64,000 bases of DNA from Escherichia coli (GTDB lineage: Bacteria > Pseudomonadota > Gammaproteobacteria > Enterobacterales > Enterobacteriaceae), in assembly GCF_041886205.1 (NCBI RefSeq), contig NZ_CP169029.1, one strand, 5' to 3'. A program made the position numbers and the translations under genes. Below are positions 2,634 to 2,807 of the stretch, piece by piece (the stretch's first letter is position 1; each line of letters opens with the position of its first letter). The notes under the pieces are model-generated. The model ran no database searches, was not told the DNA's origin, and saw nothing but the letters and a program-made list of their open reading frames with translations.

Positions 2634-2807
2634 CTAGTTGTCGCTTTTGCCGTGACTGCTCTTGCCACCTTTTTTACCTGCTTCAGATGCGCGCTGCGGA
2701 TCATTCTTGAAATTACCCCCGCTGTGCTGTCCACCTTTTTTACCTGCTTCTGATGCTCTTTCGCGGTCTTCTGCAAAATTGCCGGAACCGCCTCGATGGT
2801 TTGCCAT
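2634..2807 (-). CDS. ymdF: YmdF, KGG-repeat stress-induced protein
   Basis: ORF 2634..2837; start set at MANHRGGSG; two SEAGKKGG repeats. Confidence 0.8.
   Translation of the reverse strand: MANHRGGSGNFAEDRERASEAGKKGGQHSGGNFKNDPQRASEAGKKGGKSSHGKSDN

Follow-up and report, generated by a model that had tools for sequence, protein, structure and literature searches.

Recurrent in-frame loss of one KGG repeat unit from the stress protein gene ymdF in Escherichia

The DNA analysed here is a 64,000-nt stretch of an Escherichia coli genome (NCBI RefSeq assembly GCF_041886205.1, contig NZ_CP169029.1), referred to below as the window. Its ymdF gene lies on the minus strand (Table 1), and translation of the open reading frame gave a short, low-complexity protein of 57 aa, MANHRGGSGNFAEDRERASEAGKKGGQHSGGNFKNDPQRASEAGKKGGKSSHGKSDN. 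The name ymdF is used in RefSeq for E. coli genomes in which this locus is 100% identical; annotations of such loci also read 'general stress protein' or 'con-10 family general stress protein'. Comparison of YmdF with Pfam profile PF10685 (KGG, 'stress-induced bacterial acidophilic repeat motif') revealed a match of 67 bits in two stretches, above the cut-off of 20.4, and this above-cut-off profile match places the protein in the KGG/con-10 family. A search of YmdF against NCBIfam returned no match. The 22-residue periodicity of the KGG repeat was also present, with units at aa 5-26 and aa 27-48 that align in register. A scan for consensus promoter elements at ymdF found nothing convincing.

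The gene is flanked by rutG (1196-2551, plus strand), which is convergent to it, and by wrbA (3180-3776, plus strand), which is divergent from it. The hairpin that lies between the two convergent genes is probably a common terminator for rutG and ymdF, as judged from its match to the consensus. Identification of ymdF as an orthologue was based on the neighbours wrbA-yccJ-agp, which were found in the window, in E. coli genomes and in four other genera.

Table 1. Features of the ymdF locus, in window coordinates
Feature	Position	Strand	Basis or remark
ymdF CDS, KGG/con-10 family general stress protein	2634..2807	-	57 aa + stop; ORF translation, Pfam PF10685, RefSeq annotation
KGG unit 1, aa 10-30, NFAEDRERASEAGKKGGQHSG	2718..2780	-	Pfam register; placed from the identical N-terminal half of the 35-aa allele match
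KGG unit 2, aa 32-52, NFKNDPQRASEAGKKGGKSSH	2652..2714	-	best Pfam stretch
Shine-Dalgarno GGAGG	2814..2818	-	6 nt 5' of ATG; read from the sequence, putative function
Likely bidirectional terminator, G+C-rich hairpin with T-runs on both strands	2559..2579		consensus match only
66-nt segment absent from one-unit alleles	2685..2750	-	alignment with O157:H7 BB24-1 and GF43
Repeat copy 1 (5' in gene), exact 20-nt GAAGCAGGTAAAAAAGGTGG at 2731-2750, preceded by GCATCA (2751-2756)	2731..2756	-	
Repeat copy 2 (3' in gene), exact 20 nt at 2665-2684, preceded by GCATCT (2685-2690)	2665..2690	-	

The 321-nt ymdF locus of the window was 100% identical to that of the pig isolate LHM10-1. At Asp36 the window allele has GAT, which is a minority codon; GAC was found in all seven complete two-unit genomes that were read. 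Only 54 of 5,066 genomes showed at least 99% identity to the window over the 86-nt repeat region. The interval between ymdF and rutG also varied, with a 175-nt insertion in K-12-like, IAI1, NCTC9008, B379 and XYEH3934 haplotypes; the window (2552-2633) and most other sampled strains do not carry it. The insertion included REP/BIME-like palindromes and matched the Rfam small RNA ES036 (CssrF) at 38.5 bits, with a gathering score of 37.6. In Salmonella, E. albertii and E. fergusonii, rutR (TetR family) and putA stand directly after ymdF with no rut operon genes between them, and the adjacency of rutG and ymdF is therefore not common to the genus or the family.

Within ymdF, the plus-strand sequence CCACCTTTTTTACCTGCTTC occurs exactly at both of the 20-nt positions listed in Table 1; read in gene orientation, GAAGCAGGTAAAAAAGGTGG is present exactly twice, at gene positions 58 and 124. 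A preliminary description of this gene, made from the DNA sequence, had proposed that a repeated block encodes a SEAGKKGG unit twice, and the exact 20-nt repeat indeed forms the cores of both KGG units. The length of about 28 bp given there has to be shortened, as both plus-strand copies continue with A or T and GATGC, which makes 26 nt with one mismatch. In a repeat search the block could be extended to 35 nt (86% identity); the starts of the two copies are 66 nt apart, which corresponds to 22 codons, or one KGG unit. When the mononucleotides of ymdF were shuffled 1,000 times, the longest exact direct repeat was 12 nt or shorter, and the 20-nt repeat observed is far beyond chance.

The self-identity of ymdF peaked only at an offset of 66 (53%), other in-frame offsets giving 20-38%, and outside the cores the two units have diverged (RGGSGNFAEDRERA versus QHSGGNFKNDPQRA). 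Tandem Repeats Finder identified no array in ymdF, a result of the short length of the array and of its divergence outside the core. The repeat had been called tandem, which is accurate for two adjacent 22-codon KGG units; at the DNA level the likeness is found in the cores only. Thus, ymdF is a two-unit protein repeat in which the nucleotide repeat persists in the SEAGKKGG core alone. In approximately 130 two-unit E. coli genomes the Ser41 codon (window 2685) is TCA and not TCT, and the repeat is perfect over 26 nt. This variant was recognized from 33-nt matches in genes named ymdF and was confirmed by the sequences of TW08637 and WP8-S18.

A shorter form of the gene was found in O157:H7 BB24-1 and in GF43, both of which carry a 108-nt CDS between rutG and wrbA that encodes protein WP_001273654.1. 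The short allele reads ...GAGCATCA-GAAGCAGGTAAAAAAGGTGG-CAAGAGC..., so that its junction consists of the 5' flank of copy 1 (GCATCA), a single repeat copy and the 3' flank of copy 2 (CAAGAG). Its 35-aa product, MANHRGGSGNFAEDRERASEAGKKGGKSSHGKSDN, matched the Pfam KGG profile at 39 bits in one stretch. Every genome that we inspected from the group without the inter-repeat segment had the exact 66-nt in-frame deletion with endpoints inside the repeat. The register of the deletion is ambiguous inside the 20-nt repeat, and 2665-2730 is an equivalent description of the segment given in Table 1. The 66-nt loss equals the 66-nt spacing and one copy is kept, as in deletion between short direct repeats.

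The frequency of the one-unit allele was estimated by BLAST subtraction and from 60-row samples. A 321-nt locus query matched 5,416 of 5,426 complete E. coli genomes; the rows that ranked lowest matched in two pieces, with a span of 254-260 nt and not 321. An 86-nt query made up of repeat, inter-repeat segment and repeat, which cannot seed in a one-unit genome, matched 5,066 genomes. The difference leaves about 350 genomes (6.5%) without the segment, a percentage that reflects clonal sampling and not a rate, since most carriers belong to one clone, O157:H7. A second estimate came from a 34-nt query across the junction, designed to give no 28-mer seed in two-unit genomes. It matched 476 genomes. 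Of 60 rows taken at even intervals, 43 matched over the full length and were one-unit alleles (approximately 340 when projected); the remaining 17 matched over 33 nt and lay in normal ymdF genes. The preliminary description had anticipated that the gene might differ in length between strains, and both forms, 57 aa and 35 aa, were found; an invariant repeat number, which would have contradicted it, is not what the approximately 350 of 5,416 E. coli genomes without the inter-repeat segment display.

The sampled one-unit rows were mostly O157:H7. The others were B379, XYEH3934, F8, HCP5S3_I2, EC02, CE0032f and GF43, which are unrelated strains from human, pig, cattle and chicken meat. The group F8/EC02/CE0032f is on the TCA haplotype, beside the two-unit strain TW08637, and the longer 26-nt TCA repeat may lead to a higher deletion rate. 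NCTC9008, which gave a partial match, has a normal 174-nt ymdF with one synonymous SNP. In RefSeq, the name ymdF is missing from the short-allele genes. Six or seven ymdF matches fell on plasmid-labelled records, and three to four records were matched in two places; these may be mislabelled replicons or segmental duplications.

Gain of a unit was examined with two synthetic junctions and with the protein variants. A 34-nt three-unit junction (the repeat between the 5' flank of copy 2 and the 3' flank of copy 1) had no match in 5,426 genomes; the common ymdF SNPs lie outside this 34-mer, which would miss three-unit alleles in the approximately 130 TCA-type genomes or with a SNP in the junction. 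A 112-nt synthetic junction gave, among its best rows, only two-piece matches from ordinary two-unit genes. No 79-aa (three-unit) form was present among the longer YmdF protein variants, which had start extensions or C-terminal frameshifts instead. The slippage-type copy-number change that had been predicted for this gene is thus borne out in one direction, with contraction from two units to one in the approximately 350 of 5,416 genomes; expansion was never seen. Public E. coli data also contain smaller length variants: in one of 58 aa the core carries an additional Lys (AGKKKGG), which would fit a +3 slip within the A6 run, in one of 59 aa 'AS' is duplicated, and several others are C-terminal frameshift read-throughs.

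To place the two alleles in order, we compared ymdF with its syntenic orthologues (agp-yccJ-wrbA-ymdF) in other genera. Two units were found in Salmonella (55 aa), Klebsiella (57 aa), Citrobacter (57 aa) and Enterobacter (56 aa), and the presence of two units in all four outgroup genera indicates that the one-unit form is derived. In these genera, and likewise in yciG, the E. coli paralogue of ymdF, the cores of the two units have 6-7 mismatches over 20 positions, and no exact direct repeat is longer than 8-9 nt in the four genera or 11 nt in yciG. These genes have SEAG(R)KGG in unit 1, where a CGN codon is used, and in unit 2 the synonymous codons are different ones. In Escherichia ymdF, unit 1 has Lys (AAA) in place of the CGN-encoded Arg, and in typical E. 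coli the ymdF cores are perfect over 20 nt. Intermediate states of copy 2 were identified in divergent Escherichia, namely GGA...GGG in E69 and cores with one or two mismatches in SCPM-O-B-8794 and E. albertii. With diverged cores in the other genera and intermediates in Escherichia, the perfect repeat is a product of recent homogenisation within this lineage, which may have proceeded by intragenic conversion or by point changes. What had been described as a duplication is accordingly correct as to the two units, but the two-unit KGG architecture is ancient, and the recent part is the homogenisation of the core within Escherichia.

The paralogue yciG has the same two-unit architecture as ymdF and provides a comparison within E. 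coli. The inter-unit segment was missing in at most about 12 of 4,584 yciG genomes, compared with approximately 350 of 5,416 for ymdF. This would fit a deletion frequency that depends on the length and identity of the repeat, but the contrast is one of genome counts, not rates, and is confounded by clonal expansion. H268, a partial yciG match considered as a case of unit loss, was the sole segment-less genome inspected and proved to be a 3'-truncated pseudogene. The yciG region was matched in 4,723 of 5,426 genomes, 4,584 of them at a coverage of at least 80%, and these counts indicate that a considerable minority of E. coli lack the paralogue or have it truncated; a 3'-truncated yciG pseudogene is present on NZ_OZ197100.1.

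To determine whether the deletion occurred once or many times, we aligned approximately 2.9 kb around ymdF (2,653 ungapped columns, 180 of them variable) from eight one-unit and eight two-unit strains, the window included. The eight one-unit genomes fell on at least six local haplotypes: O157:H7; GF43; HCP5S3_I2; B379; XYEH3934; and F8/EC02/CE0032f. O157:H7 BB24-1 differed from O55:H7 CB9615 by one SNP in approximately 2.8 kb besides the 66-nt gap. The ymdF gene of this progenitor-like strain is intact, with 174 nt and two units, and the deletion appears to have been fixed in the O157:H7 lineage after its split from O55:H7. The neighbouring wrbA gene, a known integration site of Stx2 prophages in O157:H7 reference strains, the lineage with the ymdF deletion, was intact both in the window and in O157:H7 BB24-1. 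Close two-unit relatives were also found for B379 (7 SNPs from NCTC9008) and for F8 and EC02 (4 SNPs from TW08637). For GF43, HCP5S3_I2 and XYEH3934 the nearest sampled two-unit strain was 24-43 SNPs away, and their probable independence draws more on the local SNP pattern. All statements on independence in E. coli refer to the eight sampled one-unit genomes and approximately 2.7 kb of flank.

Outside E. coli, the 35-aa form was identified in E. albertii and E. fergusonii, and it was also present in Shigella flexneri. The E. albertii and E. fergusonii one-unit alleles are at the syntenic locus and have species-specific C-termini. The cores of the E. albertii type strain differ at two sites (GGT...GGT versus GGA...GGC), and the junctions of two E. 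albertii one-unit alleles are chimeric in different ways (GGT...GGC and GGA...GGC). This is direct evidence that separate events crossed over at different places within the repeat. In total, we count at least nine deletion events in the genus Escherichia. The one-unit deletion of ymdF is thus recurrent, in independent lineages.

Several other accounts of the two alleles were weighed against these data. An exact identity of 20 nt could point to a young tandem duplication, with the one-unit form ancestral and the 57-aa form derived from it. We regard this as very unlikely: the units are strongly diverged outside the core (53% identity at an offset of 66), each is orthologous to its counterpart at the syntenic locus in four other genera, a fresh copy would give two identical 66-nt units, which were never seen, and the sister lineage of O157:H7 has two units. 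That the short alleles are assembly or sequencing artefacts is hardly credible. Short-read assemblies can collapse repeats, but single reads easily span a 66-nt unit with a 20-nt repeat, the same allele is present in several hundred complete genomes that were finished independently, most of them from the O157:H7 lineage, and it is absent from the O55:H7 relative and tracks the haplotype background. A further alternative is that the one-unit allele arose once and was spread by homologous recombination, in which case the repeat would not be a recurrent hotspot. Recombination is frequent in E. coli, all eight sampled E. coli alleles share one junction and seven of them have an identical 108-nt CDS; a perfect repeat, however, predicts identical junctions anyway. 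Variable sites begin 5-50 nt 3' of the stop codon and differ among the one-unit alleles, and at these downstream sites four haplotypes match a sampled two-unit strain exactly: O157:H7 (SMS-3-5 and CB9615), B379, XYEH3934 and F8/EC02/CE0032f. No such exact match was found among the sampled strains for HCP5S3_I2 and GF43. Given this pattern, spread from a single origin would need repeated conversion tracts of approximately 100 nt or less on that side, and although very short tracts could in principle have carried the deletion between lineages, the two crossover points in E. albertii and the species-specific C-termini of the E. albertii and E. fergusonii alleles also argue against it. We consider a single origin quite unlikely.

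The remaining question is whether recurrence reflects selection more than mutational bias. The product of the two-unit gene is conserved, with an identical 57-aa protein (WP_001273658.1) encoded by eight two-unit alleles (seven complete genomes and the window) that differ by synonymous SNPs only, which suggests purifying selection on the 57-aa YmdF. E. coli without ymdF has been reported to form defective or altered biofilms and to be more susceptible to H2O2, tobramycin and ciprofloxacin, and ymdF can replace Pseudomonas aeruginosa PA2146, of which PA2190 is a likely duplication (PMC9262955). In S. Typhimurium, YciG, YmdF and STM14_1829 are described as small, disordered, RpoS-controlled and partly redundant proteins, and acid induction in this species was attributed to sigma-38 regulation (bioRxiv 10.64898/2026.04.09.717482). 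Positive selection for unit loss, through stress tolerance, biofilm or motility, would fit with the apparent fixation of the deletion in the successful O157:H7 clone and its recurrence in three species, with a 57-aa protein that is otherwise invariant in the eight alleles, which argues that it matters, with the effects of ymdF deletion on biofilm architecture and on H2O2 and antibiotic tolerance (PMC9262955), and with the partial redundancy of the KGG paralogues in Salmonella (bioRxiv 10.64898/2026.04.09.717482). Nevertheless, no phenotype is known for the 35-aa allele, fixation in a clone can be hitch-hiking, and the difference in repeat length from yciG and from the other genera fits a purely mutational account, so that selection is an unlikely main cause of the recurrence. 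Redundancy with yciG could make loss of a unit nearly neutral. It is likewise doubtful, though worth stating, that the homogenised core is an evolved one-way 'tuning knob', with unit loss selected in niches such as that of O157:H7. If it were, the 35-aa YmdF should differ from the 57-aa form in stress tolerance, biofilm or motility, and O157:H7 would represent a natural allele-swap experiment for the KGG family.

Taken together, the data favour recurrent loss of a unit from the two-KGG ymdF gene by misalignment between 20-nt repeats that were homogenised in Escherichia, a reading to which we assign a probability of about 85%. YmdF is a small, probably disordered general stress protein of two tandem 22-residue KGG repeats, and in Escherichia the DNA of the two cores has come to be identical over 20 nt, or over 26 nt in certain strains, which leaves direct repeats 66 nt apart. 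Misalignment between these repeats, by replication slippage or by short-homology, probably RecA-independent, recombination, would remove exactly one 66-nt unit in frame and leave a protein of 35 aa in which a single, hybrid KGG repeat remains. The deletion appears to have been fixed in O157:H7 after the O55:H7 split, and it is found sporadically elsewhere in E. coli, in E. albertii and in E. fergusonii. The molecular mechanism is proposed from the anatomy of the junctions. Slippage should also give expansions, and the finding that none was seen counts against the slippage account.

The ymdF gene, its repeat family and the proposed mechanism all belong to known kinds, and both alleles are already in RefSeq; the ymdF deletion is a real but ordinary repeat-mediated length polymorphism. 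What is new is a recurrent polymorphism that is fixed in one lineage and has its origin in an Escherichia-restricted homogenised repeat. A literature search on ymdF and O157 found no paper describing the deletion. As the function of KGG proteins is poorly understood, a natural one-repeat allele beside an invariant two-repeat protein offers a test of repeat number. The locus is also a natural two-step example, in which genus-level homogenisation of a coding repeat was followed by a deletion hotspot, with sister genera and a paralogue that do not have the hotspot. In practical terms, the 66-nt deletion is a marker that separates the sampled O157:H7 from one O55:H7 genome (CB9615) and from most other E. 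coli, and pan-genome or typing pipelines may treat the 35-aa gene as different or unnamed.

Loss of one copy plus the spacer between close short repeats, recurrence and a bias towards deletion are the signature of slipped misalignment or RecA-independent recombination, and this signature is shown by the E. coli lacI deletion hotspots and by tandem-repeat deletion assays. In Sodalis, the same kind of deletion has been termed 'deletogenic replication slippage' (PMC4948707). These systems resemble ymdF (20-26 nt repeats, 66 nt apart) in that one copy and the intervening DNA are lost with endpoints inside the repeat, and in that there is a deletion bias without expansions. Unlike deletions of the lacI and Sodalis type, the ymdF deletion is a natural in-frame population polymorphism that leaves a plausible shorter protein and does not inactivate the gene.

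Phase-variable contingency loci resemble ymdF in that their repeats change the length of a CDS. We rejected ymdF as a locus of this class, with no Tandem Repeats Finder array and no three-unit junction in 5,426 genomes; in contrast to contingency loci, it has two copies of a long unit, stays in frame, and has neither expansions nor an on/off frameshift. The change in ymdF is irreversible because the unique inter-repeat sequence is lost. Among known relatives, YciG, PA2146/PA2190 and Salmonella YmdF, YciG and STM14_1829 are small hydrophilic proteins like YmdF with the same 22-residue KGG repeat, and the position of ymdF beside wrbA is conserved in Salmonella, Klebsiella, Citrobacter and Enterobacter. 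The number of KGG units varies across the family, with two in most enterobacterial homologues, four in Mixta theicola and approximately three to five in Pseudomonas. This variation represents ancient differences between paralogues, whereas ymdF varies between two units and one within one species and one orthologous gene, and its variation is tied to a lineage-specific perfect nucleotide repeat.
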